This document shows positions 86-57,065 of a stretch of 64,000 bases of DNA, piece by piece. The translations under genes were made by a program, and so were the position numbers. The first letter of the stretch is position 1; each line of letters opens with the position of its first letter. This stretch comes from Chrysomallon squamiferum (lineage: Eukaryota > Animalia > Mollusca), in the NCBI GenBank assembly GCA_012295275.1, contig CM022677.1:5518001-5582000 (forward strand), written 5' to 3'. The notes under the pieces are model-generated. The model saw nothing but the letters and a program-made list of their open reading frames with translations. It ran no database searches and was not told the DNA's origin.

Positions 86-140
<55 letters not shown>

Positions 141-682: not shown

Positions 683-734
<52 letters not shown>

Positions 735-4732: not shown

Positions 4733-4775
<43 letters not shown>

Positions 4776-8340: not shown

Positions 8341-8929
8341 GGGACCTTTAGTTGTTGTGGGGGGGGTTTGTTGTTTTTTTCTGTTGTAAAACTGCATCAA
8401 GCGTTATAATGAATATCAAGCAATCATTCAAATAACACATGATCAATTTCCTTTTAACATGTAATACCACCTTTAATGCATTGAAAATGGAAATAAGTAT
8501 CTAAAAAAAAATGGAATTATCATGGTTTCAAGTATCGTTTTAGAACTACGTACTCAGAACTGTCCGCTATGGAGTTTTAGCAGAGTAACGTGTCCACATT
8601 ATGTGCCTAATGAAAATAGTCATCTTCATATTCATGCGCCATTGTCTGGGAACAAAATTTATTTTATTTTATTTTTTTATTTTTTTATTTTTTTGGCTGG
8701 CAGTATCGTAATAATATCTGAAAAAAAATATATAGTACGAAATTTGTACCAGATGATTGAACGTCAAAGTTAACCCCGAAAAAGAAAGAAAAAGAAAAGA
8801 AAAAAGAAATGTTTTCGACTTTTCCCGCAATTTCTACTCAATAACAGACATCTATGTATACGAGACATTGATTAAATGACATGTTTCCCCAAATTACTCT
8901 TAATAGTGCGTGTAGATTTGATTGAATTA

Positions 8930-9140
8930 CGAAGGCATACGTATTTAAAAGTTTGTAAAAACTAATCAACATTCGACGCTGCCATCTTGGATTTCGATCG
9001 GAAGTTTCCGTGAGCTTACGGAAATTCTTAAACTTCAAAATTCAGTTATTTTTCGTCTGTTTTCTGAACTTTTTATGATTTACACTGATAAAGATAAGGA
9101 TGGTGTCGCGCGCCTTTCCATCTACTCTTTCATCTTAATC
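8930..9140. promoter_or_regulatory. CpG-enriched promoter-like patch
   Basis: CpG-dense compared with the flanks. Contains GCCATCTT (YY1-like), CGGAAG (ETS-like) and a small hairpin at 9005-9024. Confidence 0.3.
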
Positions 9141-9783
9141 AAACTTTTCAAACAGGATCATTTTTGTTCAAATGCGAGCATAATAAACTGAAATTATAAT
9201 TCATTAAAAGACTAATGTATTAACTTGTGTAGCTGTCAGTGCTTCCCCTGTCAGAACACAGCAGAAAAGAACTTTTTATTGGCAATGGTACAGTTTACAA
9301 AACATGATTTACAAAATATAAATACAAGGAACAAAAACAAAAAATACGCCCAGCATGCAGGGTAAGAACATTTAGGTGACGTTTGTACCCATTAAATCGA
9401 CGAAATGTCTGGAGGCTTTTTTCCGTGACGTAATTTGTGCCGTTACGAGTTATCGTTCCTGTTGGTGCATGTTAATTATAGTTACGGTAGAGTTAGGATT
9501 AGGGTTGTGTAAAAGGTTTGGTTAAAAATAGAATTTATGTTAATAAATATTTTATTAAACAATTTATTAGTTGAATAATCTAAATATAGACAGTTTGTTT
9601 CTATGCGTGAATGAGAGCGTGCACACAAGACAGGTATGATGCAAACGTTTTAAGTGTCACGTTTATTAAAAGTAATACAATATCACAAATACACGCAAAC
9701 TAGAAGTATAATTGTAAATTTAGTACATTTGATTATTTTAATAACTGTGATTAATCTACTCTCTCTATCTCTCTCTGTCTCTG

Positions 9784-9837
<54 letters not shown>

Positions 9838-10229
9838 ATACACCTACATATACATGCGCAAACGTGTGTCTGTGTGAAACAAGTCTGATTGAGTAAAATT
9901 ATTATCTTCTGTCAATATAACTAAATTGATATTAATTATTATATGAAATGTGTTGATAATGTGCCGCTGATTCGCCCTCTGTTTATCTACAGCTTTGTCA
10001 GTAAATTTACAGAGAAGTGGACTGAATTTTATGTTAGCTTATTTAATAGTTTACAAAAATAAACTTAACTTATTTTAACAGATGTTGCCGCTACTTTCAT
10101 AGCTATATATATATATATATTTTCTATTCTATGTATATATGTATTTGTTATTTCGAAGTTTAGTTTCCTGAGGAAGATACATAAACACATATTTTTTTTT
10201 CAAAGGAAAAGGTTGAAGAGACAAAGTTA

Positions 10230-10380
10230 AATCTGCCACGTTTGTTCAGTTAACCTCTAAACAAAAGAAAAAAGTCTTCAATATGGCGACTGTGAGGAGA
10301 CAAAGATGACGTCATTGACGAACAAAGAAATGCTTTCTTTCTTCTTCATTTACCACGTCACCGCATCAACGAATTGGAAT
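10230..10380. promoter_or_regulatory. CpG-enriched promoter-like patch (mirror copy at 40430-40570)
   Basis: Contains AATATGGCG (YY1-like), TGACGTCA (CRE) and CCACGTCA. Confidence 0.3.
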
Positions 10381-11122
10381 TTTTTTCAAATAATATTTTG
10401 TTTGTTTACTGAAGCGAAACTTACTATGTTGTTTGTTTGCACGTGTCAATAATAAAAACGTTACAAGTGTTTTATAATGACAGACTTATTCAGGAGTACT
10501 ATAAAGAATTCACTCCACACCCAAAGATGATGAAAATCATGTTAAATAAAGAAAGTACATTACAGTTAAACAAATACAGCACACACGTACACTTAAACTG
10601 TCACCTTTCTTCAAACTTTATGTCAGTATTAAACTAATTTCCCCATCTAACATATTATGATATGAATTTAATCTTTTTTTTAAATCTAGTAGTCGACAGT
10701 AAGTACAAATATTAACATTTGTGAATGTAATTTATGAAATATTTACTTATCGCTCAGTCCATGTAAACACTAACACAGAAATAATAAAATATATAGACCC
10801 TTTTCATCTAAGAAAAGAAACAGAAAAACATTTTTTGTTTATGTGTGTGTGACAAATCTCAATGAATAAAAGCTATTATTTTCTGTGAATATATATTATT
10901 AATTAATTATTAGTTAATTAATTATTATTGTTATTATTATTGGTTATTGTTGTTGCTGTTAGTAGTACTAGTTGTAGTAATAGTAGTAGTAGTATTATCA
11001 TTATTAATTAATTAATTAATATATTTTTAAATGTGAATAATAATCTTGCTGGAATCACGTCTTTCTTGGTTATCATTCACCACCACGAATAACGTACATG
11101 TTGTACTCGAGAGAAAATGCGC

Positions 11123-11365
11123 GCACACACACACACCCACACAGACACACCCACACACACTCACACCCACACATACAGACACACACACACAGACACACCC
11201 ACACACAGACACACACAAACACAGACACACCCACACAGACACACACACACTCACACCCACACATACAGACTCACACACACGGACACACACACACACAGAC
11301 ACACACAAACACAGACTCACACACACACACTCACAGACACACACACACACAGACACACCCCCACA
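11123..11365. repeat. Compound (CA)n microsatellite (mirror at 39522-39660)
   Basis: Seen directly. Confidence 0.95.
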
Positions 11366-11629
11366 CTGGAAACAATAAATCCTGTCTGAAATTGAACGAC
11401 TAACTGGATGATATTGTAATATAGCTGTAATCATTACATTGTAATATATATGTAACTAGTCATAAAACACGTGTACTACTATTGCTATGAAAACGGAATA
11501 TATGTACGTCATCTCAGTTACATGTTTTCTTTACTTTTATTGTAATTTTGGTGACATGGCTCGGACCTCGCCTTTGAGAGACAAAGCGGCTTCACCAGTA
11601 GACTGATTATTCCATTTCTGCTGTAAAAT

Positions 11630-11696
11630 TGTAAATAATTTTGATACTTTTATAATATTTAAACAGTGTATTGACATCTGTCTATCAGTTTATTTA

Positions 11697-11750
<54 letters not shown>

Positions 11751-12090
11751 CTCTATGCTTTATTTATTTGCCTCCTTATAATAGTTTTTATTTTAATCCT
11801 AAAGACAGTCAAGTTCTCGTTGATCAGTTCCCAAATCATGAATGTTATTGCGTTGCTAAGGAACCCAAATAAATCCAACGCAGTAAGAAGACATTTTGGA
11901 TAAACAATGTACGCATATATAAACAAAAAAAGAACACAATAGAAATATGGCTTTAAGAGCCATGACTTTAACAGACACAGCATGTAACTTAGTATTTAAT
12001 ATAACAATACTCAGACAGACAGAGATATAAATAAACTCATAGATGTGAATAAACTATTTAAATATTATAAAAGTATCAAAATGATTTACA
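11630..12090. mobile_element. Foldback or MITE-like segment with approximately 65-70-bp imperfect inverted ends
   Basis: 11630-11700 (tgtaaataattttgatacttttataatatttaaacag...) is the reverse complement of 12025-12090. No clear target-site duplication. Confidence 0.5.
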
Positions 12091-13708
12091 TTTGTTTTTA
12101 AAATAGCAAATTAATATTAATATACATGTGTACATTTGCAGGGAAATCCACAGAAAGATCTTTGTTGAACATAAACCAGGTATAGAATACAGAAATCAGT
12201 CCAGACCTGTTTTCCTTAACCCAGTGATAATGTTAAAACATACTTACATCTATCTATCAGTGTAACTATTATTTGTATCACTATCTCCACAATTACATCT
12301 ATTACTTCTACAATTATTTCAAAACTATGTAAATAAAAAATGTCTCCACTCTTATGAAATTGTTTCCCAAGCTGATGAAACTGCTAGCCAAAAATATGTA
12401 ATAAACAACAGAAAACACAATAATCCTAAATTAGAAAAAAAAAAAAAAAAAAAAAAAAACATGGTATAAAATGTTTCATAAGCCTTTGAAGAGCTGAGTG
12501 CTATAAAACACAAAAATACCAAGATTTCTGTTTTGTTAATAAAAATATATTAACAAAATAAAATAACAATATGAAGACATTTGGTTACAAAACAATTTTT
12601 TTAAATTAAGAAACAACTATAATGTGATAATGTGATCTGCAAATTATTCATTAAGAAAATTTCTTAATAATATATAAACAACGTATCATCTTCCACTTTA
12701 TGTTTTATTAACAAACTTTGTTTTTTTTCTTTTTAATCTTTAACAGAAATTTTCATATTCTTTGTTATTTTATATTTGGATTATGTGATTAAGTTGATTA
12801 TTCTTTAAAATAAAAATAAATCAATAAATAAATATATAAATAAAATTATCTCCCTTGAGCCGTAAGATTTGCAGCAGTTAAAGATTTCTAGATTTAGCCC
12901 TTTTTTTTTTTTAAATATTTTTTTTTCACAGACTTGACTGTACTTGGTGCTGTGTCTGGTACAAACATTCTGTGTACTGTCTACATCTGATTATATCTTT
13001 CATCAACAACACAGTGACTTTGAATCTAAATTCAGTGTCACAATGTTACAGATTCTTCAATAAGAACAGTCCATGATTCACACTAGTAATGTTTTTAATA
13101 TGTTATTTTGGTGTGAAACTTTCTAAAAGCTTTCAATTTTATCCAAGAATTCAGTTCTTCATATTTGTTGTTGAGATGTTTCATTTTCTTAGTTCAGGGT
13201 GATCAGAAAACTTGAAGAACTTGGAGGGGAAATTGAGAAGTGATTTTAGAATCAGAGGACATCACTTCTCACATGTTTTCTTTCATTCTCAAACCAAGCT
13301 CATCATAAAAGAACCTGCAGAAAATTTAAAAAATGTAAAAGTTGTAATTAAAAGAAAATAATATTCTGAGTTGTACCAACAATATTAATGTGGATTATAC
13401 AATTTTACATGTAAAATAAAGATTAGATATGATTCAAATGGGTTGTGACTTAATTATTTGACATTTTTCTAGTCAGCATGTCTAGTTTATCCGGTAAAGT
13501 AATAAAAACAAAACAAAAATGTATCATTAATAATCCTTTCATTCACTGGAAACAAAAGCAAATAATTATTTAAATGTTAGCTAAAGTATTGACAGGGGAC
13601 ATCGGACCTTAACACACAAGTTTGAATAAATCAAGTCTGAAGTATAGATGAAATAATTCTACAAAGTATCATTCACTTTCTTGATATTAATGTACTAAGT
13701 TAACATTT

Positions 13709-14215
13709 AAAATGTTAACATGACTGTATGTGTGTATTTCAGTTACTAAATCTAAATGTTAACATGACTGTATGTGTGTATTTCAGTTACTAAATCTAAA
13801 TGTTAACATACTGTATGTGTGTATTTCAGTTAAATCATGACTGCATGTGTGTATGTGTGTATTTCAGTTACTAAATAAATCTAAATGTTAACATACTGTA
13901 TGTGTGTATTTCAGTTACTAAATCTAAATGTTAACATGACTGTATATGTGTAATGTTAACATTTGTGTGTATTTCAGTTACTAAATCTAAATGTTAACAT
14001 GACTGTATGTGTGTATTTCAGTTACTAAATCTAAATGTTAACATGACTGTATGTGTGTATTTCAGTTACTAAATCTAAATGTTAACATGACTGTATGTGT
14101 GTATTTCAGTTACTAAATCTAAATGTTAACATGACTGTATGTGTGTATTTCAGTTACTAAATCTAAATGTTAACATGACTGTATGTGTGTATTTCAGTTA
14201 CTAAATCTAAATGTA
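13709..14215 (-). repeat. 44-bp minisatellite, about 11 copies
   Basis: Unit aaatgttaacatgactgtatgtgtgtatttcagttactaaatct. Mirror of 36055-37160. Confidence 0.97.
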
Positions 14216-29911: not shown

Positions 29912-30265
29912 ATGAAAATAATTAATTGAATGTTGTATCAATATTAATTAACAGACTGGTACCATGTTAATGGATCTGCTTTAATCTTATATATTTATTT
30001 ATCTTTTTATTTTTTTGCTTACCATTAACATTTGTAGTTTTACTCTTAATAAATTACTGATGTCATCTACAGTTCTTTTGTTTTTATTTTTTTATTATTC
30101 TTTTTAAGTATATATTAATATTTTCTCTTATTATGTTACAGATATCAGCTGAATTGTTTTATTTTGATTTGTTTGTCCCATTATGTTTGTATAATGATTA
30201 AAATATGTTATGACACACTATGTATTTACATATTTAATTAATTTTAAATTTATTTTTCTCTGCAG

Positions 30266-30618
30266 AGGATATGAAACTGTTTCCTGCAGTGATGACTTGG
30301 GGATGTTCTGTTCTTACACAAACACCTGTAACTGAAGCAGTTAAATTTGTCACTGTTAATCAAGGACTTAACTCGTTAAAGGTAAGTGTTTAAAAATTTG
30401 TGAAGAACCAATAATATTCTTGTATGAGTGTTAAAGTCAAAGAATGAGGAATTTTCATTCAGTTTACTGTTGTTGTTGTTATTTTCACAGTATTTATTAT
30501 TATAAATTAAATTGTTGTAGGATTCAGGTCAGTGTTATGAACTTAATGGAGAAAAAAATCACAACATTTTTTATTCAGCTTATTATTAATGTTGTTTTCT
30601 TTCATCTTCTTGTTCATC

Positions 30619-30690
<72 letters not shown>

Positions 30691-31501
30691 CATCATCATC
30701 ATCATATATATATATATATATTATTTGAATAATTATTATTATATGCTATGTTCATTCATGATTTCTCATGTTGCATATAAAACATCCTTTAATTGCCAGT
30801 GAAGAACTTTCATAGAGGAATTTCTCTTTGTACAATTTCTATTCATAAATTTAGTTTTATACTTAAGAAATATTAATATTTAAAAAATTTTAACATGACA
30901 TTAATGATTCACTGTAAATGTAATCATTCTACATATATGAATCATGATAACCAGTAATATTAAAAACGTACAGAGATATTAAATATTCATTTTTATTCTT
31001 ATTTATTTACAGCCTTTATAGCAGAACTCTTTGCTATTTCATTCTTATTTAACATCTGTAAGTTCTGAAATCAGGAAACTGAAATCAACTCAGACTGGAC
31101 AAAGTTCTGTCCCAAAACATCATGGAAAGGAACAACCTGCACAAACTATTGTAAGTTTGTCTTTATTATTATGTTTATTAGATTTTTATTATTCTTATTG
31201 TGTGTGTTGGTTGGGAGGATTGTTTAAGAATGTTGGTATGCGAGATAAAAGACATGGAAAATGTTGGATCAACTCAGGTAAAATTATAATTATAATTAAC
31301 CTTTATGATTTCAGAACATTATTACTCTGTACAAGTGACAGAATTAAATATTTTAAAATGTAAGCAGTTGTCACATAATGTTACTAAATAAATCCTATCA
31401 CCTTACTATAAATACTTTAATAATACTGATAAATAAATAATAAATTAACTTTACAAAATCAAATTCAGTATTTATTAAATATGTTGCAGTAGCTTTAGTA
31501 A

Positions 31502-31551
<50 letters not shown>

Positions 31552-31643
31552 TATATGTATCGAGCCATACATTTCAATATGTATATGTACCTGCGCTACC
31601 TTTTATTTATTTATTTATTTTCTGTAGTTACTTACCTGTTTCC

Positions 31644-31674
<31 letters not shown>

Positions 31675-32318
31675 GTTTAGTTTATCGAGAACATGGCAAA
31701 AGGAATATATTAGTCACCAGTGCTCTTCCATATATCAGCAGTGTTCCTCACCATGGCAACATCACTGGTTGTGTAGTCAGTTCTTATGTTTCCTCCAGGT
31801 AACACATTTTATTTTAGTTGTTAGAGTTATCTTCCATTGCCAATTTCTGTTTTATTATTTTAGCTTTTTGTACTATTCTATTTGTATTGTTATTTTTTTT
31901 TTTGTTTTTTTAAATAACATATTATGATTTCATTATTTGATTAGTAGTATTAAGGTCTTTACAAAAATTAGTTATATATGTTATTGTTATTTCAGTTAAT
32001 TTTATTATTTAATATGTATTTTATTCTTATTACAATTAATTTTATTATTACTTATTATATATGTTATTATTATTACAGTTAATTTTATTATTACTTATTA
32101 TATATGTTATTACAGTTAATTTTATTATTACTTGTTTTAGTGTGATTATTTCAGAATGTTCAAAGAGTGGCTATCACAATATGAGAGGTCACCAGTGTGA
32201 TGTATGTGACTCATCAATGCTGTAGAAATGAAAAACACAAAATATAAATCTTGTAAGTCATTACTAGTCATTAAAACATCACAACTATTTTTAGATTCAC
32301 CAAAGTTAAACCTGATTT
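30266..32318 (+). pseudogene. MARS1: Unprocessed partial pseudogene of cytoplasmic methionyl-tRNA synthetase, copy 2
   Basis: Exons 30266-30381 (AVMTWGC..EAVKFVTVNQGLNSLK), 31013-31150, 31681-31798 ([36 protein letters not shown]) and 32155-32318 (GYHNMRGHQCD/LINAVEMKNTKYKSCKSLLVIKTSQLFLDSPK). Confidence 0.93.
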
Positions 32319-32580
32319 GTTTTTTCTTGATTCATTTGCTGATAAAGTTTCAAATCCTTCTAAACTTTTTTTTTCAGTTAAGTATGTCAATTCTAAAGAC
32401 TTCAACATTTGTTTGGTGGGGTATGAATTTAATAGTTAACATTTATTTATGGTTGTTATTATATAAGAAAATGCTAAATTATTAGAATATTTTAATAAGT
32501 AAATAATTTTAGGGGTTTTACCAAATAGTAGTATTCAGCTTAATGATAACTGTTCTTATCCATTTGTATGAGACCAGTGT

Positions 32581-32640
<60 letters not shown>

Positions 32641-32834
32641 ACTCATCCTATATATATTTATTTGTATTTCATCGCTGACTTAGAAAACAACTTTCTTGAA
32701 GCAGGATCTTGTTTCCTTCTTCTTTCATGATTATTATTTTATTCCTTACCCTCCTCTACCCTGTCTACAACCTTCATTTTAAAAAATTATTAAATTATGT
32801 TTGCTGTTTATTAAAATATTTTAATTTCTTTCAT

Positions 32835-32877
<43 letters not shown>

Positions 32878-33609
32878 TTGATTTATTGATTTATTGATTT
32901 ATTACTTTGAATATTTTAATTTACACTTACTTTTTATTACATTTATAAGAAAAGTGAAAGTTAAATAGTTAACTTGTATGTGTGTGTGCTCTTGTTTTAT
33001 AATTAAAGCTACATTATTTTTGTATTTTCTTTATTTAATGTTCAGTGATAATTCTTGATTATATGGACATACCTGGAAACCCGCTTGGTCTTTTCAAAGA
33101 TGTCAGGGAAAGATCTCTGGCCTTGTTAATGGAAATGTGAGTGGATTTCCTAGAAATGTTGTCATGTGTTTCTAATTCTGCAGCAAATTTAGTTGTGATA
33201 GTTCCCTGTATTACCTCTCTTTCAGGGAATGATATTTCATTTAATCAGAAATAAAAGTTTTAATGTTTTAATTAAAAATTTTTTTTTTAATTCTTTCTGT
33301 CATTTTGCAACAATGTAAATAAAATGATATAAAAGGTTGTGACTTATAATGATGACTAGAAAATTACATTGCAACCTTACTGAATACTTTCATTATGTTG
33401 TTTTGATAACCATACAAATGCAAACTTTACTTCTGTGAATGAACTGTTTTATATTTTTAAACAACAAAAAAAAATCCACACATTTATTTAAGTATTTTAT
33501 TAACTTGTAATGGTAATGGATGCACTATTTCTTACTAGAAACAAAATTAACGAAATAATAATAATATCTTTCTTTCTTTCTTTCTTTATTTCTTTCTTTC
33601 TTTATTTCT

Positions 33610-33644
<35 letters not shown>

Positions 33645-33840
33645 TATTTTTTGTTTGTTTGATGAAATTAATAAATTGTAAATTATTTCAAGATTATGAA
33701 CATCTTGTACAGGTAGCAGTTCTGTATTTGACAGGTACAGCCTCCATGGAGACCAGTACACTCAGACTGGTGAACTAAGAAAAAGGGAGGTAATTCATCA
33801 GGTCACATTGCAGCAGGTGTTAAGAGTCTGTGATATGAAA

Positions 33841-34102
33841 CACTGGTTTTACACTCTTCATGCAGAATTCCAGGACATCACATACCCTCTTGTTTACATG
33901 TTCCTTCCAAACAAGACTCAAGCTACGTATGTCTCAGTTTTTCAACTCTTGAAGATTGAAGCAGAAAAAAACTTCAATTTGAAGCCACAGATTATCTAGA
34001 CTGACTTTGAGAAAGCTGTCTCCAGTGCAGCAGTGAAAGAGTTCAAGGAGATGTTTTTTCAGCAGTGCCCAAGCTCTGTGGAGGAAGATTCAGCATATTG
34101 GT
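33841..34102 (+). mobile_element. Degenerate MULE transposase fragment (mirror of 15838-16099)
   Basis: Same translation, and it shares the TAG before TDFEKA. Confidence 0.92.
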
Positions 34103-34805
34103 GATACAAAGAAGATTCTGGTAACAGTAGTGTAATATTTAGAATCATCTAGTTAAAGTTCTTAGTGATTAGGTAAAAGAAAATGTGTAGTAATATACTG
34201 ACAGATTAGTCTTCAAGTTTGTTTTCATTAATATATATTCTATAAAATGTTTAATCTTTTCAGTTATTTAACACCTAATATCAAACTATATTATAGTATA
34301 TAATTAATTTATTTTGTTTTTAATTTACTTTTTTATTTGTTTTATATTTATTTAATTTTTTTGTTTTGAGGATTTAGATTTTATATTAAAATAAACTAAT
34401 GTAGTATTAACTATGTTAATTCACAGTGCAGGAAAACTATAGTCATACTGGTGAAAATACTGTTTATTAATGTTTAATATATTTGTATTATTTTATTTTA
34501 TATCTTTAATTATCTTTTAATTTATTAAACATCCTGTTTTAGTTTTGGTTGTAGAGTTCATAACAATTAATAATGGCATTTAATCAAAAATATTTGTATT
34601 TATTACAGGAATTCTTGAAAGGAACTGGTGGATAATGGAGTTATTGAAACTGTGTTCAAGTCTGTTTCAGGAATGTCTAATTTGACGTCTGCTCTAAATT
34701 CCAATCACAGACAGAACCCAGCCTGAATCCATCCCCAGAGATGTTGCTGTGTCCTGGTGGGTTGCTTCCAGCACATTCAAGTCCACAAACACAGTTCAGC
34801 AGCTG

Positions 34806-35167
34806 CAGTTGTCAGTGGTAATATTTTTACTCATAGTTTTAATATGTTAATGATACACAACACAACTGAGAGATGAGCTACTCAGTTGTCAGTGGTAATA
34901 TTTTTACTCACAGTTTTAATATGTTAATGGTACACAACACAACTGAGAGATGAGCTACTCAGTTGTCAGTGGTAATATTTTTACTCACAGTTTTAATATG
35001 TTAATGATACTCATAACAACCGAGAGATGAGCTACTCAGTTTTGGTAATATTTTTACTCAGTTTTAATATGTTAATGGTACACAACACAACTGAGAGATG
35101 AGTTACTCAGTTGTCAGTGGTAATATTTTTACTCACAGTTTTAATATGTTAATGGTACAACTGAGAG
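34806..35167 (+). repeat. 77-bp minisatellite, about 4.8 copies (single copy in the left arm)
   Basis: Units start at 34806, 34883, 34960, 35037 and 35108. Each carries TG|gtaata. Confidence 0.95.
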
Positions 35168-36054
35168 GTAAGCTATTCATTTCCTTTTTTTTAATAGATT
35201 ATCAGTACACATGACAACACACACCTCACAGTTTTCTCATGAATTTATTTTTTTTATATACATTTTCTACTTATTTATTTATATATTTTGTTGGCTTTTT
35301 CTTTTTTAAAATTATTTTTATTTATTTTATTTGATATATATTTTTTTATTTATTTTTTTTTTTGTTGTTGTTGTTATACTTATTAACATTTGTTTAAATT
35401 AAATGGAATTTATTTCAAATAAATATTTAAAATGTTAGTTTTATTTTCAGTGTTATTACTGAAGATTGACTGTACTGAAGCAGTGCTGGAGAAAAAAGTT
35501 CATGTTTTCTCTGATCACATGAAAACAGGTTTACTTTCTCAGCTGTTTTCATTAACACAACAGAATTAATTGACCATTCATTACATGTGGGTTTTTCAAG
35601 CACTGAGTGTGAAAAGATGAACATGATATGAACATAAATTCAGATTATAAGAGAGTTGTATTCACTTTTTTTTTTTAAATTATTTATTTTATATATTATT
35701 GTTTTTGCTTTTTAACTATAGATATATAAATAAATAAATATGCAAATAGTGATTTTTTTATTATTATTTTCAGATATGATTTGTTTGCTGTTTCTTCATA
35801 ATTAATTTTTATATTTATATTCGTATCATTATTTTATCATTTTTATTTAAATAAAAATGTTTTTTGTCTTATTTTATTTTTATAAATTCCTTCAGGATGA
35901 TTAATATAAATAATTTGTGTTTTTCAGAATCCAGTGTCAGATCAGCCCAGGAGACAGTCTACCACTCTGACCTGACAAAAACAAAAACATGAAACAGTCA
36001 GATGTAAGAAGTCAGCCATTGATTAGAAAGTGAGTGAATTTGTTATACAGAGCT

Positions 36055-37160
36055 TACATTTAGATTTAGTAACTGAAATACACACATACAGTCATGTTAA
36101 CATTTAGATTTAGTAACTGAAATACACACATACAGTCATGTTAACATTTAGATTTAGAAACTGAAATACACACATACAGTCATGTTAACATTTAGATTTA
36201 GTAACTGAAATACACACATACAGTCATGTTAACATTTAGATTTAGTAACTGAAATACACACATACAGTCATGTTAACATTTAGATTTAGTAACTGAAATA
36301 CACACATACAGTCATGTTAACATTTAGATTTAGTAACTGAAATACACACATACAGTCATGTTAACATTTAGATTTAGTAACTGAAATACACACATACAGT
36401 CATGTTAACATTTAGATTTAGTAACTGAAATACACACATACAGTCATGTTAACATTTAGATTTAGTAACTGAAATACACACATACAGTCATGTTAACATT
36501 TAGATTTAGTAACTGAAATACACACATACAGTCATGTTAACATTTAGATTTAGTAACTGAAATACACACATACAGTCATGTTAACATTTAGATTTAGTAA
36601 CTGAAATACACACATACAGTCATGTTAACATTTAGATTTAGTAACTGAAATACACACATACAGTCATGTTAACATTTAGATTTAGTAACTGAAATACACA
36701 CATACAGTCATGTTAACATTTAGATTTAGTAACTGAAATACACACATACAGTCATGTTAACATTTAGATTTAGAAACTGAAATACACACATACAGTCATG
36801 TTAACATTTAGATTTAGAAACTGAAATACACACATACAATCATGTTTACATTTAGATTTAGAAACTGAAATACACACATACAGTCATGTTAACATTTAGA
36901 TTTAGTAACTGAAATACACACATACAGTCATGTTAACATTTAGATTTAGAAACTCAAATACACACATACAGTCATGTTAACATTTAGATTTAGTAACTGA
37001 AATACACACATACAGTCATGTTAACATTTAGATTTAGTAACTGAAATACACACATACAGTCATGTTAACATTTAGATTTAGTAACTGAAATACACACATA
37101 CAGTCATGTTAACATTTAGATTTAGAAACTGAAATACACACATAGAGTCATGTTAACATT
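36055..37160 (+). repeat. 44-bp minisatellite, about 25 copies
   Basis: Unit ttaacatttagatttagtaactgaaatacacacatacagtcatg. It begins about 25 nt after the donor gtgagt at 36030. Confidence 0.98.
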
Positions 37161-38769
37161 TTAAATGTTAACTTAGTACATTAATATCAAGAAAGTGAAT
37201 GATACTTTGTAGAATTATTTCATCTATACTTCAAACTTGATTTATTCAAACTTGTGTGTTAAAGTCAGATGTCCCCTGTCAATACTTTAGCTAACATTTA
37301 AATAATGATTTGCTTTTGTTTCCAGTGAATGAAAGGATTATTACTGATACATTTTTGTTTTGTTTTTATTACTTTACTGGATAAACTAGACATGCTGACC
37401 AGAAAAATGTCAAATAATTAAGTCACAACCCATTTGAATCATATCTAACCTTTATTTTACATGTAAAATTGTATAATCCACATTAATATTGTTGGTACAA
37501 CTCAGAATATTATTTTATTTTAATTACAACTTTTACATTTTTTAAATTTTCTGCAGGTTCTTTTATGATGAGCTTGGTTTGAGAATGAAAGAAAACATGT
37601 GAGAAGTGATGTCCTCTGATTCTAAAATCACTTCTCAATTTCCCCTCCAAGTTCTTCGAGTTTTCTGATCACCCTGAACTAAGAAAATGAAACATCTCAA
37701 CAACAAATATGAAGAACTGAATTCTTGGATAAAATTGAAAGCTTTTAGAAAGTTTCACACCAAAATAACATATTAAAAACATTACTAGTGTGAATCATGG
37801 ACTGTTCTTATTGAAGAATCTGTAACATTGTGACACTGAATTTAGATTCAAAGTCACAGTGTTGTTCACGAAAGATATAATCAGATGTAGACAGTACACA
37901 GAATGTTTGTACCAGACACAGCACCAAGTACAGTCAAGTCTGTGAAAAAAAAATATTAAAAGAAAAAAGGGCTAAATCTAGAAATCTTTAACTGCTGCAA
38001 ATCTTATGGCTCAAGGGAGATAATTTTATTTATATATTTATTTATTGATTTATTTTTATTTTAAAGAATAATCAACTTAATCACATAATCCAAATATAAA
38101 ATAACAAAGAATATGAAGATTTCTGTTAAAGATTAAAAAGAAAAAAAACAAAGTATGTTAATAAAACATAAAGTGGAAGATGATACGTTGTTTGTAAGCT
38201 ATATTATAAAGAAATTTTTCTTAATGAATAATTTGCACATCACATTACCACATTATAGTTGTTTCTTAATTTTTTTCTTTTTTTTTTCTAACCAAATGTC
38301 TTGATATTGTTATTTTATTTTGTTAATATATTTTTATTAACAAAACAGAAATCTTGGTATTTTTGTGTTTTATAGCACTCAGCTCTTCAAAGGCTTATGA
38401 AACATTTTATACCATGTTTGGTTTTTTTTCCAAATTTTATTGTGTTTTCTGTTGTTTATTACATATTTTTAGCTAGCAGTTTCATCAGCTTGGGAAACAA
38501 TTTCATAAGAGTGGAGAAATTTTTTATTTACATAGTTTTGAAATAATTGTAGAAGTAATAGATGTAATTGTGGAGATAGTGATACAAATAATAGTTACAC
38601 TGATAGATAGATGTAAGTATGTTTTAACATTATCACTGGGTTAAGGAAAACAGGTCTGGACTGATTTCATTATTCTATACCTGGTTTATGTTTAACAAAG
38701 ATTTTTTTATGGATTTCCCTGCAAATGTACACATGTATATTAATATTAATTTGCTATTTTAAAAACAAA

Positions 38770-39103
38770 TGTAAATCATTTTGATACTTTTATAATATTT
38801 AAATAGTTTATTCACATCTATGAGTTTATTTTTATTTATATGTCTGTCTGTCTGAGTATTGTTATGTTAAATACTAAGTTACATGTTGTGTCTGTTAGAG
38901 TCATGGCTCATAAAGCCATATTTCTATTGTGTTTTTGTTTATATATGCGTACATTGTTTATCCAAAATGTCTTCTTACTGCGGGTTCCTTAGCAATGCAT
39001 TAACATTCATGATTTGGGAACTGATCAACGAGAAGTTGACTGTCTTTAGGATTAAAATAAAAACAATTATAAGGAGGCAAATAAATAAAGCATAGAGTTA
39101 TAT

Positions 39104-39194
<91 letters not shown>

Positions 39195-39258
39195 ATAAAC
39201 TGATAGACAGATGTCAATACACTGTTTAAATATTATAGAAGTATCAAAATTATTTACA
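38770..39258. mobile_element. Foldback or MITE-like segment (mirror of 11630-12090)
   Basis: Same inverted ends, with internal (TG)n(AG)n of different length. Confidence 0.5.
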
Positions 39259-39595
39259 ATTTTACAGCAGAAATCGAATAATCAGTCTACTGGTGAAGCC
39301 GCTTTGTCTCTCAAAGGCGAGGTCCGAGGAATGTCACCAAAATTACAATAAAAGTAAAGAAAATATGTAATTGCGATGACGTACATATATTCCGTTTTCA
39401 TAGCAATAGTAGTACACGTGTTTTATGACTAGTTACATATATATTACAATGTAATGATTACAGCTATATTACAATATCATCCAGTTAGTCGTTCAATTTC
39501 AGACAGGATTTATTGTTTCCAGTGTGTGTGGGGGTGTCTGTGTGTGTGTGAGTGTGTGTGGGTGTGTCTGTGTGTGTGTGTGGGTGTGTGTGTGT

Positions 39596-39631
<36 letters not shown>

Positions 39632-40982
39632 TGTGTGTGTGTGTGAGTGTGTGTGGGTTTGTCTTTGTATGGGTGGATGTGCGCATTTTCTCTCGAGTAC
39701 AACATGTACGTTATTCGTGGTGGTGAATGATAACCAAGAAAGACCTGATTCCAGCAAGATTATTATTCAGATTTAAAAATATATTAATTAATTAATTAAT
39801 AATGATAATACTACTACTACTATTACTACAACTAGTACTACTAACAGCAACACCAACAATAATAATAATAACAATAATAATAATAATTAATTAATTAATA
39901 ATATGAGTATATTTCACAGAAAATAATAGCTTTTATTCATTGAGATTGGTCACACACATATGAACAAAAAATGTTTTTCTGTTTCTTTTCTTAGATGAAA
40001 AGGGTCTCTGTATATTTTATTATTTCTGTGTTAGTCTTTACATGGACTGAGCGATAAGTAAATATTTCATAAATTACATTCACTAACGTTAATATTTGTA
40101 CTTACCGTGGACTACTAAATTAAAAAAAAAAGAAGATTAAATTCATATCATAATATGTTAGATGGGGAAATTAGTTTAATACTGACATAAAGTTTGAAGA
40201 AAGGTGACAATTTAAGTGTACGTGTGGCTGTATTTGTTTAATTGTAATGTACTTTCTTTATTTAACAAGATTTTCATCATCTTTGGGTGTGGAGTGAATT
40301 CTTTATAGTACTCCTGAATAAATCTGTCATTATAAAACACTTGTAACGTTTTTATTATTGACAAACAAACAACATAGTCAGTTTCGCTTCAGTAAACAAA
40401 CAAAATATTATTTGAAAACAGTTCCAATTCGTTGATGCGGTGACGTGGTAAATGAAGAAGAAAGAAAGCATTCCTTTGTTCGTCAGTGAAGTCATCTTTA
40501 TCTCCTCACAGTCGCCATATTGAAGACTTTTTTCTTTTGTTTAGAGGTTAACTGAACAAACGTGGCAGATTTCACTTTGTCTCTTCAACCTTTTCCTTCG
40601 TGGAAAAACATATGTGTGTATGTATCTTCCCCAGGAAACTAAAGTTCGAAATGACAAATATATATATATATATATATATAAAATAGAAAACATATATATA
40701 TAAATATATATGTATATATAGCTATGAAAGTAGCGGCAACATCTGTTAAAATAAGTTAAGTTTATTTTTGTAAGCTATTAACATAAAATTCAGTCCACTT
40801 CTCTGTAAATTTACTGACAAAGCTGTAGATAAACAGAGGGCGAATCAGCTGCACATTATCAACACATTTCATATAATAATTAATATCGGGAAATCAATTT
40901 AGTTATATTGAGAGAAGATAATTGCACTCAATCAGTCTTCTTTGACACAGACTCACGTATGCGCATTTATATGCAGGTGTAT

Positions 40983-41093
<111 letters not shown>

Positions 41094-41211
41094 CCTGTAA
41101 TACATTTTGAAACTCATTTTCTTTGTTTTCCCCGACTGTTAGTTGTATGGGTTGTGGTGTATATCAGACAGAATTTCATGTAACGAAAATAATTAAAATC
41201 TACGTAAGAAA

Positions 41212-42751: not shown

Positions 42752-45540
<2,789 letters not shown>

Positions 45541-45755
45541 AACAGAGAATAAACGTCAGCACACGGTTACCTAATTACTTGTAAATTGCAGTCATCGTTT
45601 AAGAAGTAATCGCACTGGAAAAATTGTGTGCCGCTTTTCACAATGCTAATTACTATATAAATTGTTATTTTGTTCTGGAATTTACACCCAGTGTAAATAC
45701 TTTAATTAATCATTGTTTATGAAGGAAGCTGGTCTGTAAACGGTAGCTGGTCGGG

Positions 45756-46032
<277 letters not shown>

Positions 46033-46869
46033 CAGCCCTAAAAAGAAAATAAATTGTTATTTAATCTGGAATTTACACCCGGTAGAGAGAATCCGGATTT
46101 GTCAATGTTTTCTTCATAACAGTTTAACGGGAATCTGAAATGGTGCCGGTGTAGCAAACAAACACCACCACCACTACCACCACCAACAACAACAATAATA
46201 AGGCTTTTATTTCATGTCACTATGATTATTATAAATATTGTCATCACCATTGTTGTCAGGGAGCCCAGCGCATAAGCGGTGTAAGTTTCAAGTGCTAACG
46301 ACCCTATTAAACTATGGCTCGTTTCTTGTCTACAATACATACATAATTGCATATACTGCACATGTAAACTACGTGTAATATCAAGTATCCACTATGAACA
46401 TCAAAACAAAACACAATATTTATATTACAAAGAAAATTATTTATTTTACACATGTATACTTATTATTTAGTTGTTGAGAACATGCGAGTTGGCGATAAAT
46501 GAAATATTATAATTTCTATTTCTTTAATTTTCAGTAGCAATGATTTGTGTTAAATATATAGAACACAAGCTCTCTTACACACACATATTCACAGTCGAAA
46601 CGTTTCGTTTTAATTTTGAAATAAAGGAAACGAAATAAATCTTTAAAAAAATATCATTTTAGAAATAAATACGGAAATAAAACATTGAATAAATTGATAA
46701 TTTTTTCTATTATTATTTATTTGCTAAATTTAAAAAAAAAAAAAAAAAAAAAGAATAAAGGGGAGCAATATATTAATCATCATCATCACAGTATAAAGAA
46801 CAACAAAAACAACAACAATACACAAATATATAAATAAATAAATAAATAAATAAACGAAACTATAAGACA

Positions 46870-47010
46870 GCTTATGTTTCGCTGCCATGACAACTCGTTT
46901 ATCGATCGACTTCAAGTCGTGTCGCAGCGCTCAAACAAATTAATAAACTGGGTCACCCCCCACCCCATACCATCCCACCCAGTTCTCAGTGCTCACTGCT
47001 GACGTGAATT
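46870..47010. promoter_or_regulatory. Candidate promoter of unit C
   Basis: CpG cluster with X-box/RFX-like GCTGCCATGACAAC at 46881-46894, DRE-like TATCGAT and TGACGT. It lies about 600 bp upstream of the first clear acceptor. Confidence 0.4.
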
Positions 47011-47104
47011 TCACCTTAAACACTGCACAAACAACTGACAATTCTTTCCGAAAACATTTATTAAACAAATTCGACAACAACAAAACAGACACGAACAAAT
47101 TGAA

Positions 47105-47137
<33 letters not shown>

Positions 47138-47138
47138 T

Positions 47139-47177
<39 letters not shown>

Positions 47178-47479
47178 AAAATAAAATAATAAAAATAAAT
47201 AAATAATAATAGCAACAACGACAACAACATAATAACAACAATAATAATAATAACAAAGAGAAAAACAACAATAATAAGAAAAACTAGATAGACTAAATAT
47301 ATGTAACAGTTGCAGCAGTAGTAGTAATTAATTAATTTATACGTAACTACATTTTCCAGAAGTAAAACAGCTAGCTAGATACTGCTCATTTCCTGTCACC
47401 AACAAATAATTTTCAGTACACGCCAAACTTTTAGAACAGTAAATAAATAATCTATATACAGGTTTTCATATTAAATTAA

Positions 47480-47525
<46 letters not shown>

Positions 47526-48131
47526 TACTCTTTATTTTTCTTGTTATTGTTTAGATTACTACATGCTACAGCAGGAGTTGATACACGTTTTTCAACATGA
47601 CACAAGCATGCAGGTTAAAGGTCATAGTTCATCTGCACAGGGAGCTTGTTAACAGGCTTTGGAATTTGATTTGTTCAGTAAGTGAAGTCCTTCTTTTTTG
47701 TCTGTTTTTAAATTATTATTATCTACATATTAGATAATTTAATAAGTGTGTAGGTCTCTGTAATTTTATTTCTTTTCTAAATTGCTTCCTTATTGTTTTT
47801 TAGTTTTATTTTGTATTGTATTTTCTATTGTATTATGTATGCAACATAAATCATCATTATTTTAAAGCGTGTTTTTGTGAGAGATATAAGGTGTTAGGCA
47901 GTTCTATTCTGTCTACTTATTTAAAATAAAGATATCAACAAAATATTTTTAATAACAAACAACATTTTATATGATTAATTAAACATTTCAGGTGTAAGAT
48001 GAATTATAATATATTTTAACCTCACAAACAAAACACTTTCAATTTTTTTTTTTTTTTTTTAACATGTCATAATGAAGTTGTAAATTTTTAAAGTTAAATT
48101 TCCAGTAACTTTTGTTATTATAATTATAATT

Positions 48132-48240
<109 letters not shown>

Positions 48241-49199
48241 TATTTTACTGTCAGTATACTTACATGAATGAAGATAATTTTTTTGTAATAAAGTATTGTA
48301 TTTGAATAGCCAAACTGAGAGAATAAAAATAATCTAATGAAAATAATGTGGTGTTTTATTTTTATTTTGAAGGTTGCTAAGGAGACTAGCAAAGTGTTGA
48401 GAGAGAGAAGAGTTCAGTGTGTCTCTCTTGACAGATTAGCTGCTGATGTTGTAGACTTGATGAGATGGAGACAGGAGTGTGTGTGTTTCTTTGACAGTGA
48501 GTGACACCAAATTATGAAGAAGATTGTTGTTATATATATATATTTCCTGTATATTCACTATTTAAGTGACAAACTGTATATAAATATTAATGTTATATAT
48601 ATTTATCTATATTTGTGTTAGATGTGTTAGTTTCTGTGTTAGAATATCATTGTTTGTTTCTGCTCCAATGTCTGTTTTGTCACTGTTATCACTAAATATG
48701 TTTCATTAATAAAGAGATGAAGCCAGTTTCCTGGTTTGGTAAAGTATTACAATTTATATCTGATAAATATAAATAAGAAAATACATGTAAACCACAGATT
48801 CAGAATAGCTGTAGGTTTTGGTGTCATGCTGAATTTCTATTAAATGACATTTTAAAACATTTCTCTACAGAGTTTTAAATTATATATTTTGAATTTTTGT
48901 TCAGTTAATAACTGCTCTGTATTCAGCTTTTGTGATATTACTTGAACACTGAAGACATAAGTTTGTGATAAACAGGCTGTAGGTAATGTTAAGTAGATTG
49001 TGATGTTTACTGTTTTGTTTTTTAGTTGAGTATCCTGTGTTCAGACTGGCTGGTGAACAAGGTGGGAGTACTTTAACTTTTCATCAAGATGGTTTCTCTC
49101 TGAGGCAGCTGGTCAAGTTGAGGAGTAGGAAATGTCTGGAAGTGTCACCCCACTGTTGTCCAGCTTCTTGGAAAGTCTCATTCCTAGTAAGTAATGTCT

Positions 49200-50410
49200 G
49201 TTAGAAATCACTGTCAGTTTAAAATCAACATTTCTCAACTTTTTATCTTTACAATTTCAAACACACTTGTTAAAAAAACTGTGTCAGTTTAAAATCAGCA
49301 TTTCTCAACTTTTTATCTTTACAATTTCAAACACACTTGTTAGAAAACTGTGTCAGTTTAAAATCAACATTTCTCAACTTTTTATCTTTACAATTTCAAA
49401 CACACTTGTTAGAAAACTGTGTCAGTTTAAAATCAGCATTTCTCAACTTTTTATCTTTACAATTTCAAACACACTTGTTAAAAAAACTGTGTGTTTAAAA
49501 TCAGCATTTTCAACTTTTTAAAATTTCTTGTTAAAAAAGCATTTCAGCATTTCTCAACTTTTTATCTTTCAATTTCAAACACACTTGTTAAAAAATTTCA
49601 GTTTAAAAAATTTCTCAACTTTTTATCTTTACAATTTCAAACACACTTGTTAAAAAAACTGTGTCAGTTTAAAATCAGCATTTCTCAACTTTTTATCTTT
49701 CAATTTACTTGTTAGAAAACTTTCAGTTTAAAAAACACTTTTTATCTTTACAATTTCAAACACAAAAAAACTGTGTCAGTTTAAAATCAGCATTTCTCAA
49801 CTTTTTTATCTTTACAATTTCAAACACACTTGTTAGAAACACTGTGTTAATCAACAAACTTTTTATCTTTACAATTTCAAACACACTTGTTAGAAAAACT
49901 GTGTCAGTTTAAAATCAGCATTTCTCAACTTTTTATCTTTACAATTTCAAACACACTTGTTAAAAAACTGTGTCAGTTTAAAATCAGCATTTCTCAACTT
50001 TTTATCTTTACAATTTCAAACACACTTGTTAAAAAAACTGTGTCAGTTTAAAATCAGCATTTCTCAACTTTTTATCTTTACAATTTCAAACACACTTGTT
50101 AAAAACTGTGTCAGTTTAAAATCAGCATTTCTCAACTTTTTATCTTTACAATTTCAAACACACTTGTTAGAAAACTGTGTCAGTTTAAAATCAGCATTTC
50201 TCAACTTTTTATCTTTACAATTTCAAACACACTTGTTAAAAACTGTGTCAGTTTAAAATCAGCAGTTCTCAACTTTTTATCTTTACAATTTCAAACACAC
50301 TTGTTAAAAACTGTGTCAGTTTAAAATCAGCATTTCTCAACTTTTTATCTTTACAATTTCAAACACACTTGTTAGAAAACTGTGTCAGTTTAAAATCAAC
50401 TTGTTAGAAA
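49200..50410 (+). repeat. 69-70-bp minisatellite, about 17 copies
   Basis: Unit gtcagtttaaaatcagcatttctcaactttttatctttacaatttcaaacacacttgttagaaaactgt. It starts about 13 nt after the donor at 49187. Confidence 0.97.
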
Positions 50411-50689
50411 CTGTTAACACACAGCTGCATACAGATTTTAGAAAACTGGCAAAACACTTGTTTATTTATTTAATAATAATCTGTATGAAATACTGAAACT
50501 TTTTATGATGTTGAATTTTAGAATTCTGTGTTAAAATTTCTTAAAGGAAGCATGTTAAACTTAACAATAAATATTTTAATAGTGTTGATAAATGTGCTGC
50601 TTATAGCCTAGTGGTGTTCTTTTCTGACTTAAGTTAGTTTGTTGCATATAATAATATCTATTTTGTTATAAATTATAGCATATGTACAA

Positions 50690-50778
<89 letters not shown>

Positions 50779-51316
50779 ATATAAATAAATATATTCAAAT
50801 TAGTTTTGAAATATTATTAATAATTGTTAAATAATTTTTCTGCAGTTGTGTCATGCAACTTAGCAAGAAAGTTCAGTAGTAAAAAGGTGAGTATTTTGTT
50901 TGATTTTCTCTGTTTAATCATACTTTTTATTTGTTTGTTTGTTTGTTTGTTTATTATTGTTTTTATTATTATTTTTATTAATGTTGTTTTATTATTAATG
51001 TCATTGCTATTGCTGTTATTATTATTATCTTTTTAAAATTTATTTCAAATAGTGGGAAATTAATTAAGTTATTAATTTCAGCACAGTTAAGAATTGATTT
51101 TTTCTCCAATCTTGTTTTACATTCTTATATAAAAACATAAATTAAAGGTTTTGTTCTCCATATATCCTGATAAACTTGTTTTGTTTTTGTCAAACATTAT
51201 TATCAAATAATAAAATACTCACACAGTAGCATGCAAATATATTCAGTATTCTTTTTTGTTCCTGTCAGTGAAATATATTTTAAATAGTTTGTCAGATGCA
51301 TATTTTTATATTAAAA

Positions 51317-51347
<31 letters not shown>

Positions 51348-51467
51348 AAGTGTTTTCATACTTTTCAGATGTAGTTGATGTTTGTTGGATCCTGTTATTG
51401 GAAAATGTCAGCTGAATTTCAGTCTGCAGGGCATGAATGACTGGTTAGTAAATCTACAGCTTCACGA

Positions 51468-51809
51468 TAGAAATTCTCACTAGTCATTGACACACAATTC
51501 AGTAAGTCTGCATGTCTGGTGTAGGACTGGGACATAGAAATTCTCACTAGTCATTGACACACAATTCAGTAAGTCTGCATGTCTGGTGTAGGACTCGGGA
51601 CATAGAAATTCTCACTAGTCATTGACACACAATTCAGTAAGTCTGCATGTCTGGTGTAGGACTGGGACATAGAAATTCTCACTAGTCATTGACACACAAT
51701 TCAGTAAGTCTGCATGTCTGGTGTAGGACTGGGACATAGAAATTCTCACTAGTCATTGACACACAATTCAGTAAGTCTGCATGTCTGGTGTAGGACTGGG
51801 ACATAGAAA
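51468..51809 (+). repeat. 67-bp minisatellite x5 spanning a splice donor
   Basis: Units start at 51468, 51535, 51603, 51670 and 51737. Each has TTCA|gtaagt. Confidence 0.97.
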
Positions 51810-52935
51810 ATCTTATTTTGTGTAGTTCTGGTTTTCTGATTTATGAATGTCCTGGGAAGTAGAAGTAACTAATTTGTTTACATTCTAGTGTTACTGTTTG
51901 GGGTAGCAACCAAGCAAGTCTGTTGTGTGTGTTTTCTTTTCTTTTATTGTTATTTATTCTTTTTCTCCTCAGTTTTGTTTTATTTCATTCATATTGGTCT
52001 CTACTGTTTTAAAGGATTTCTGTCCCAGGTAGTATTTGATTGAGCATGTCCTCTTTGAATATTTAATATTTTGTGTATCTTGTAATAGCTGTAGTCACAA
52101 TTATTGTCATCCTGTCATTACTGTAAGTTTTGTTTTCAGTATGAATCATGGAACTGAATTATGGAAACAATGCATTACTGAAATTTGAACTGAATAGTTT
52201 GTTGTGTTAACATACAGACAGACAATGTAGAGGTAGACAGATTTACACCAGAGACATTAAAACTTGGGTGTTGCTGTATATGATTTTAACATTTTATTTT
52301 ATTTTGTTTTATTTGTAATACAACAACATAACCACTGAACTGAACTGTTAGTGCTGACAATTGCCCTGTGGTACAGGACTGGTTCACTGTTATCTTTTGA
52401 CTGCATACATTATCATGTGGGTAAAAGGGCAGTGAATGGGTACCAGGACATAGATCCTAATTAGTATACATCAACAAGTCCTGTGACATACAATTCATTT
52501 TAGGACCATTTATAAAAGTTTATCTGGATCCCGCACCATAACTGTATGACTCAGCAAATGTGACACCCAAATCTGTGATTCATTTCTTCTGCTTTGAAAA
52601 GACAGGATGCACTAAATCAAAATTAACAGCATAAAAATGTGTTCTCTTGTATGATGCCTATTTATTTAAAAAAAATAAAAAATAAAATGATTCTTATTTA
52701 AGTATAATATTACAACAAAACTCACACAGATGTCTTTGAATGATTATACAGTATGTCATGAATAAAATTACATTTCATGTTCTGTACTTCTGTCAGTTTC
52801 TTGTGCTTCTTTTTCTCTTGCTTCCACCTCAGTGTATTCCTTAAAAGGGTGTTGACTTCCATTTTTGAACATTAAAATGTATTAAATTAAAATTCACATG
52901 GTAATATTTGTTTTAATGAGTTTTTAAAATTATTT

Positions 52936-52966
<31 letters not shown>

Positions 52967-55851: not shown

Positions 55852-56030
55852 TGTCTATCTGAATTTAGCACACAAACTGGAACTTTGAAATGGTTAAAAC
55901 TTGCGAGGGGTAAAATTCTCCCAGTATCTGGGTCTGTGTTATTTAGAAAAGCTGAGGAATTTGCTAGAATGTTTAAGATGTAAAGTTTAAAGCTGTGTCT
56001 GTGTGACTGGATACATTTAAGTGTCACACT
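55852..56030 (+). mobile_element. pogo/Tigger (CENP-B-type HTH) transposase fragment
   Basis: LKWLKLARGKILPVSGSVLFRKAEEFARMFKM*SLK, then frameshifted *LDTFKCH. This matches W...R...LPVSGP.L..KA..FA...FKAS.GWL.RFK.RH. Confidence 0.8.
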
Positions 56031-57065
56031 GGATGAAAAATAACACAATTTTAATAAACAAAATTGTTTTAGAAAATGTACATAAATTTTAGTTTTTTTT
56101 TCAGATAAATGTTTCAGGTTTTTTGTAAAAGGAAATGCATATACACAGATTACATAATAATAATAATACATAACATAACCCCTACAGACATAGTAAATGG
56201 AAATATGGTTTTTAAACTTCATTTGTTTATTTTTGTTTATCATCTATCTTTTTTGTACTATCCTAACATTTTTAGAAAGATGCTGTATGAAAACTATTTC
56301 TGCTAGAGTTTTCAAATGTGGAATATACAGAATTAAAACAAACACTACAAAATAACACAAAGAAAGTCTGGGAAATACTGACTATTCTTTTCAGATAACC
56401 TCTACACACCTTTCTGTTGTTTCAAAATATGAATAAATTTCAATTTAGTTTTTCTAAATTATTTCTAAAGTGTGTAAACAGAGACTAATTTCTTTCTGTT
56501 ATTTTGTAGAAATACAGCAGTTTGAATAATATGTATATACTGGTTTGGGTTGGAGAGGTTCATGAAATGGGGTACTAGTAATTCATATTATATAACAGAA
56601 ATAAAATATTATAAAAAAAAAAAAAAAAAAAAAAAATTAAAATAAAGAAAAAAAAAAAAAAAAAAAATCCATAGTAATCAATCAGAACTGATAAATGTGG
56701 GTTCTTTGTGTTCTTGTTTTTGTTTCACCTGATAAAACATTCAGAAAGTAAAAACTAAAGTAAAAACCTTTTTTTCATTAATGCACTAGACAGAATTAAT
56801 TGACTATAACATGCAGGTTTTCTAGCAGAATGTCAACAAACAAAACACTAATGAGAAGTGAGTATAAACATTATATAACAGTAAATTCAGGTGAGGCATT
56901 CATGTCAACAGATAGTTGTATTACTTTTTAATTTTTATTTCTTTATTTACATTATAAAATAATAAATTGATTTATTTATTATATTTTTTGAAATATTACT
57001 TTTTTTAAGGTTCTTTTAATAATTTTCTGATTTACTTAATGTTTTATATTTTTATAATTTTCCAA

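Follow-up and report, generated by a model that had tools for sequence, protein, structure and literature searches.

Transcribed unprocessed (duplicated) pseudogenes, which occur in segmental duplications, are the general class with which the locus described here may be compared, and a further point of reference is provided by Pack-MULE-like elements, where terminal inverted repeats and a target-site duplication surround captured gene fragments. As regards divergence between neighbouring copies, the tandem HMA4 paralogues of Arabidopsis halleri are reported to have a mosaic divergence that results from interlocus gene conversion (bioRxiv 10.1101/2025.10.29.685298). For the L/M opsins of gibbons and other primates, exons are reported to be more diverged than the converted introns, a pattern that holds because selection guards the coding differences (PMC3213168). 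Lastly, false duplications are reported to have most often a gap between the copies (PMC9516828).

The window, by which we mean the whole stretch of 64,000 nucleotides of Chrysomallon squamiferum DNA that was analysed, consists of AT-rich animal DNA (about 27% GC) that is depleted in CpG and rich in microsatellites. It contains two copies of a unit, referred to below as the right and left arms (Table 1). A global alignment of these two assembled copies gave an overall divergence of about 3%, and the introns are all retained in both arms. As the left arm runs right up to the gap of 200 N, the inverted arrangement (palindrome) depends upon the scaffolding. The island upstream of the right arm is a candidate promoter based upon its CpG content. 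Additional CpG-rich islands, with o/e values of 0.74-1.28 vs a background of 0.10, are present at 8400-9700, 39200-41000 and 45540-47500 and suggest further promoters.

Table 1. Features of the MARS1-derived locus, in window positions. Exons after exon 3 are predictions; RNA joins cover exons 1-2-3.
Feature	Position	Strand	Left copy	Differences between arms	Remarks
Left arm, inverted	9759-20374	-			20374 aligns to the start of the right arm; stops exactly at the scaffold gap
Assembly gap, 200 N	20375-20574	.			Between the arms, whose order and orientation rest on scaffolding
CpG-rich island, candidate promoter	29000-29500	+			Upstream of right arm; CpG o/e 0.79 (unit: 0.10)
Right arm, chimeric pseudogene unit	29587-41061	+			From blastn and global alignment; (AG)n microsatellite at end
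Exon 1, MARS1-derived	30266-30381	+	19718-19604	6 changes and an indel	Low-scoring match to chiton MARS1 83-116
Exon 2, MARS1 linker by position only	31013-31150	+	18978-18841	10 changes	
Identical intron tract	31229-31471	.		0/243	Two-state model
High-divergence tract	31472-32480	.		40 events in 868 columns (218 exonic)	Exon 3, the next intron and exon 4
Exon 3, start of MARS1 catalytic domain	31681-31798	+	18293-18176	7 changes	
Exon 4, MARS1 339-372 (chiton protein), frameshifted	32155-32252	+	17862-17765	6 changes	Predicted splice sites
Predicted exon with MULE transposase fragment and stop	33713-34172	+		7/460	
Near-identical tract	33805-34112	.		2/308	Wholly in predicted exon
Predicted exon, origin unassigned	34609-34817	+		12/209	
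Predicted exon	35451-35528	+		0/77	Both arms identical
Predicted exon start, leading into 44-bp minisatellite	35928-36055	+		3/106	3' end uncertain
Near-identical tract	37523-37844	.		1/322	Mostly in predicted terminal exon
Predicted terminal exon	37557-38000	+		4/424	3' end set arbitrarily

The relationship of the unit to the cytoplasmic methionyl-tRNA synthetase gene MARS1 is most evident in exon 3, which matches the human protein (PDB 5gl7) with E=1e-9 and residues 193-229 of chiton MARS1, and which covers what we take to be the HIGH-motif region. In a HMMER search with this exon, the 150 matches listed of 651 include MARS1 fragments that are as much as 72% identical, and a word-based protein search with it returned nothing. 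The chiton protein matches exons 1, 3 and 4 in order, and for exons 1 and 4 its score was above that of tuna MARS1. The MARS1 identification made in the initial annotation is thus borne out by protein matches for exons 1, 3 and 4, but for exon 2, where a significant match to the MARS1 linker is absent, it is by position only. AG/GT borders are present at all four exons. The MARS1 features that have been kept are those of N-terminal and early catalytic exons, and the exons for residues ~230-338 are absent. Farther along, a MULE transposase fragment (33715-34101; Pfam PF10551, E=1.5e-7) is located internally in the unit, one end of whose left copy is hidden in the gap, and for the predicted exon at 34609-34817 no match was detected to Pfam in the part scanned or to MARS1. 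Because the MULE fragment and exons of unassigned origin follow the MARS1 exons, the unit is a chimera. When the four exons are spliced together, 5-10 stops are found in every frame of either arm and the longest ATG frame is of 58 aa; exon 4, in addition, has a frameshift relative to chiton MARS1. Parental homology, retained introns and disabling lesions, which are the tested features of an unprocessed MARS1 pseudogene, are therefore all present, and the locus is a MARS1/MULE chimeric pseudogene, riddled with stops, from a multi-copy family. It resembles other unprocessed transcribed pseudogenes in being a fragment of a housekeeping gene with introns, stops and frameshifts that exists in many copies and is still spliced in some family member, but it differs from a plain unprocessed pseudogene in its chimeric nature, its MARS1 exons being partial and followed by the MULE fragment and other exons. 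Among the papers listed in a literature search there was no description of a multi-copy MARS1 pseudogene family, and exact-motif scans of metagenome contigs gave 0 loci.

Evidence regarding other copies comes from public sequencing runs, of which 11 were listed and four (X1, X2, X5, and X7) were compared over positions 30730-31490 (761 bases, comprising exon 2 and its flanks). The DNA runs gave 112, 144, and 229 contigs, of which 76, 71, and 113, respectively, are less than 95% alike, and hence the family is multi-copy, with copies ranging from 99% to under 90% alike and numerous diverged ones occurring in other individuals. In the RNA run X7, exon 2 is spliced both to the 3' end of exon 1 and to exon 3, which indicates that some member of the family is transcribed and spliced. 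The RNA contigs come from family members, and most of them differ from the right arm, to which 2 of 23 are at least 99% alike. Exon 1 is joined in the RNA to acceptors that lie inside exon 2 (near 31060 and 31074), and 30982-31073 is missing from one DNA contig, due to which it is likely that splice patterns differ among the copies.

The letters found in these runs also bear upon the two arms. At 31043, 31046, 31047, and 31111 in exon 2 (among 40 listed of 141 variant places), the left arm has the family-majority letters and the right arm differs. The right-arm letters at 31046 and 31047 are absent from X1, X5, and X7; as they are carried at a contig depth of 266/500 in X2, they are real variants. 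Immediately downstream, in the intron, the family also frequently has the left-arm letters (31186 and 31209), and the diverged patch thus does not stop at the exon 2 border. In the identical tract that follows, the arms share family-rare letters at 31301 and 31389, which would be expected if they had recently been homogenised or had a close common ancestor; at 31389 both arms have T, where C makes up all of the depth in X1, X2, and X7 and 95% of that in X5.

It had been noted initially that exons are more diverged than introns between the arms. The hand counts for the five exons concerned are reproduced by the raw alignment, viz. 6/115 and a 1-nt indel in exon 1, 10/138 in exon 2, 7/118 in exon 3, 7/151 in 32155-32305 and 12/209 in 34609-34817, although the fourth of these exons is predicted to end at the donor after 32252 and not at 32305. 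The four intron windows chosen for comparison are likewise low in divergence (10/1045 = 1.0%), and the contrast between them and the five exons (about 6%) is highly significant (p=3e-7 to 5e-8). The claim holds when framed in this manner, but it fails in general. The intron windows had been picked by eye, and the intron parts that were skipped (31151-31277, 31501-31680, and 31799-32154) differ at 31/520 positions (5.96%), and the four MARS1-region exons at 29/471 (6.16%; p=0.89). Further, the other four predicted exons differ less (Table 1), the long ones being under-diverged (O/E 0.49 and 0.32), and when all nine predicted exons are compared with all introns, the values are 3.0-3.2% vs 2.3-2.6% (p=0.13-0.27). 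In these analyses repeats were masked in two ways, by an automatic mask and by a lighter hand mask, and both results are given; a misaligned patch with small tandem duplications (29787-29830) was left out of every test.

Base composition also differs between the two kinds of sequence, with a GC content of 34-45% in exons vs 22-29% in introns, and outside exons the rate of differences at G/C columns is about 2.8-2.9 times that at A/T columns (5.0-5.5% vs 1.7-1.9%). After correction for this, the excess over all nine exons is gone (O/E 0.97-1.04), which is the outcome that the initial annotation had itself named as speaking against its claim. Hence, the signal of exons changing faster than introns is mostly due to the choice of the windows that were compared. 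CpG decay was considered as a cause and rejected, as it involves 1/41 differences in the five exons (vs 9/155). A separate observation from the alignment of 29910-40980 is that G-C transversions, which make up 24 of the 145-155 non-exon differences and 8 of the 39-42 in the five exons, are high for such AT-rich DNA.

The divergence between the arms is over-dispersed (100-column bins, p=2e-5). In a two-state model, it is resolved into a background of 3.5% and near-identical tracts of 0.6%, about 100-330 bp in length, which are found in introns and exons alike. These tract calls use merged changes, since on unmerged bases the model fitted micro-clusters only (13-40 columns). Near-identity extends over 240-340 columns in several stretches of intron, and in addition to the exonic tracts in Table 1, a low tract is present at 35389-35644 in an exon. 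The tracts of high divergence at 30938-31225 and 31472-32480, on the other hand, cross exon borders into introns.

A residual excess is observed in the four MARS1-region exons, a class that is definable without looking at divergence. Relative to whole introns their divergence is 6.2% vs 2.6% (p=4e-4), after G/C correction the O/E ratio is 1.9-2.05 (shift or placement p 0.003-0.014), a null that selects the best five of nine exons gives p=0.012, and the two-state model on unmerged bases gives an effect of 2.24x (p=0.006). However, much of this excess is supplied by clustered changes, including four substitutions and the indel within 8 bp of exon 1 (30332-30339) and three changes in 31043-31047, and it is reduced on merging. 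When changes no more than 5 bp apart were merged, the O/E fell to 1.46 with a placement p of 0.052, and in the two-state model with changes merged within 2 bp the effect was 1.48x (p=0.11), the corresponding value for all nine exons being 0.99 (range 0.99-1.03). When the five exons (6.0%) are set against their flanks without G/C correction, the contrast is not significant for flanks 50-100 columns long (4.0-4.1%; p=0.14 and 0.08) but becomes so at lengths of 150 and 200 columns (3.3% and 2.8%; p=0.004 and 2e-4). The residual is thus modest and real-looking per base, but it is not robust per event. The G/C direction of changes is balanced (16 vs 13), and a G/C bias was not seen. Local templating of the clustered changes was also considered; among 10 clusters in 2 arms a single 11-nt match was found, 46 bases upstream of 31043-31047, which was discounted because it is not beyond chance in such AT-rich DNA.

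Based upon these results, we favour, with a probability of roughly 65%, the view that the arms are sister paralogues of a multi-copy family and that the contrast between them reflects mosaic homogenisation among the copies together with G/C mutability and the choice of windows. Copies of this family would exchange sequence with one another, through gene conversion or through recombination, over tracts some hundreds of bases long that ignore exon borders, and such exchange, rather than polishing or allelic coalescence, would have made the near-identical tracts, as judged by an alignment of two assembled copies. Exons may look hotter partly because their GC content is 35-44% vs 22-29% in introns, with G/C positions presumably mutating faster; the 1.5-2x excess that is left in the MARS1 exons would represent a few multi-base events and chance; and the windows compared would, by coincidence, have set diverged exons against intron tracts that had been homogenised. 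Patchy gene conversion, which was one of the options suggested initially, fits the over-dispersion, the presence of tracts in both introns and exons and the shared rare alleles at 31301/31389, although the exchange step itself is something that these patterns suggest rather than display. As is reported for HMA4, neighbouring copies are more diverged in some tracts of the gene than in others, but the HMA4 copies are functional and their long introns escape conversion, whereas the MARS1 unit is frameless and the case for conversion in it is made from two copies (bioRxiv 10.1101/2025.10.29.685298). The per-base MARS1-exon excess (O/E 1.9-2.05; 2.24x unmerged) and the contrast with the 150-200-column flanks count against the favoured reading.

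An alternative which we regard as unlikely is that the arms are two haplotypes falsely duplicated by the gap and/or the product of polishing with mis-mapped multi-copy reads, in which case the contrast would consist of patchy heterozygosity and consensus error. The locus resembles false (heterotype) duplications in having near-identical copies on one scaffold with a gap between them (PMC9516828), the left arm ending exactly at this gap. The best public run, moreover, contains just 0.54 of the sampled words of the right arm; none of the four runs has the right-arm letter at 30967, which could be a private variant or an error; and the tandem arrays at 49500-49850 and from 57067 look indel-rich. 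However, the outer flanks of the arms show no relationship to each other in the window beyond the shared (AG)n end, the family consists of many real copies, and the right-arm letters at 31046/31047, given their depth in X2, are real variants.

It is likewise doubtful that diverged sequence has entered the MARS1-derived exons preferentially by RNA/cDNA conversion, or that selection on a regulatory RNA holds these exons apart, with the result that they diversify at about twice the intron rate. The former of these possibilities, i.e. an exon-centred conversion templated by the spliced cDNA or RNA of a more diverged family member, is improbable when taken by itself. The residual 1.5-2x excess, the drop in divergence with distance from the five exons, the fact that the family is transcribed and spliced and the presence of the family-majority letters of exon 2 in the left but not the right arm are all consistent with it. 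Yet the high-divergence tracts extend into introns, 0 introns have been lost in either arm, the long predicted exons are under-diverged and no spliced junction is present among the 24 loose ends listed of 134 from the DNA runs. The related suggestion of exon-focused mutagenesis did not gain support either. Relative to the right arm, the diverged pieces of other copies differ by 7.8-12.9% where they are intron-only (11 pieces) and by 8.7-14.7% where they are mostly exon 2 (4 pieces), as counted by hand among 32 listed of 517 in a comparison that covers one exon (exon 2) and whose 85% likeness floor censors more distant pieces. Since exon 2 and the introns beside it show about the same divergence in distant copies, a standing exon-specific mutator is argued against, and the excess over all exons is absent.

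Selection on the RNA of the MARS1-derived exons, by which they would be driven apart or would resist homogenisation as primate L/M opsin exons do under purifying selection, is in our view very improbable. The excess falls in a natural class of exons, and the headline pattern of exons more diverged than introns between paralogues is like that of the gibbon L/M opsins. In the opsins, however, conversion tracts are reported to lie mostly in introns, whereas in the MARS1 unit the pattern fails over all exons, tracts are also found in exons and nothing is coded (PMC3213168). The opsin-type features thus fail here, i.e. the all-exon excess (O/E 0.97-1.04), the confinement of tracts to introns and the coding differences. 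The coding frame is absent from both arms, changes away from functional MARS1 are seen by eye in both, the G/C direction of changes is balanced and the neighbouring intron parts are equally diverged, and the diversifying pressure on the RNA that was initially proposed consequently finds no support. Lastly, constraint on introns by hosted small RNAs with drifting exons, as in snoRNA host genes, is hardly credible even though the transcript is non-coding and spliced and several intron stretches are nearly identical, as these same stretches are 8-13% different in distant family copies, and it was rejected because Rfam, which covers known families, gave 0 matches at the gathering score in the window and 0 at E up to 1 in 28200-41100.

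If mosaic homogenisation is the best explanation, the locus matters little, being one more amplified, chimeric and transcribed pseudogene with mosaic divergence. It does advise caution, since exon/intron contrasts based upon two copies need whole introns, all exons, correction for base composition and the counting of events. Should the MARS1-exon excess hold over many copies, it would offer an uncommon natural setting in which to test RNA-templated gene conversion, or selection acting upon a non-coding RNA derived from an aminoacyl-tRNA synthetase.

A number of other features were observed in the window. In the left arm, a 23-nt micro-exon with AG/GT borders is predicted at 16827-16849 (- strand), within a stretch of about 220 bases that is absent from the right arm near 33039-33049. 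A 77-bp tandem repeat at 34806-35159, present in 4.7 copies in the right arm and one in the left, includes the predicted donor after 34817, which is therefore multiplied in the right arm. The 44-bp minisatellite (36056-37161) has 25 copies in the right arm vs about 11 in the left. A simple satellite of about 7.6 kb, of the AC/AT type, adjoins the gap (20575-28170), and a (GATA)n satellite of 2.8 kb is located at 42753-45536. The regions 1-7200 and 47500-57000 contain short GC-richer blocks with AG/GT-like borders that by eye resemble further spliced non-coding units, and blastn detected no likeness between them and the exons of the arms. The tandem array at 49500-49850 looks indel-rich, and a second array occupies 57067-64000, where units of about 88-97 bp each carry a GTAAGT donor-like and a TATCAG acceptor-like motif; this latter array is also indel-rich, possibly a noisy consensus, and from 58001 on it is free of CpG.
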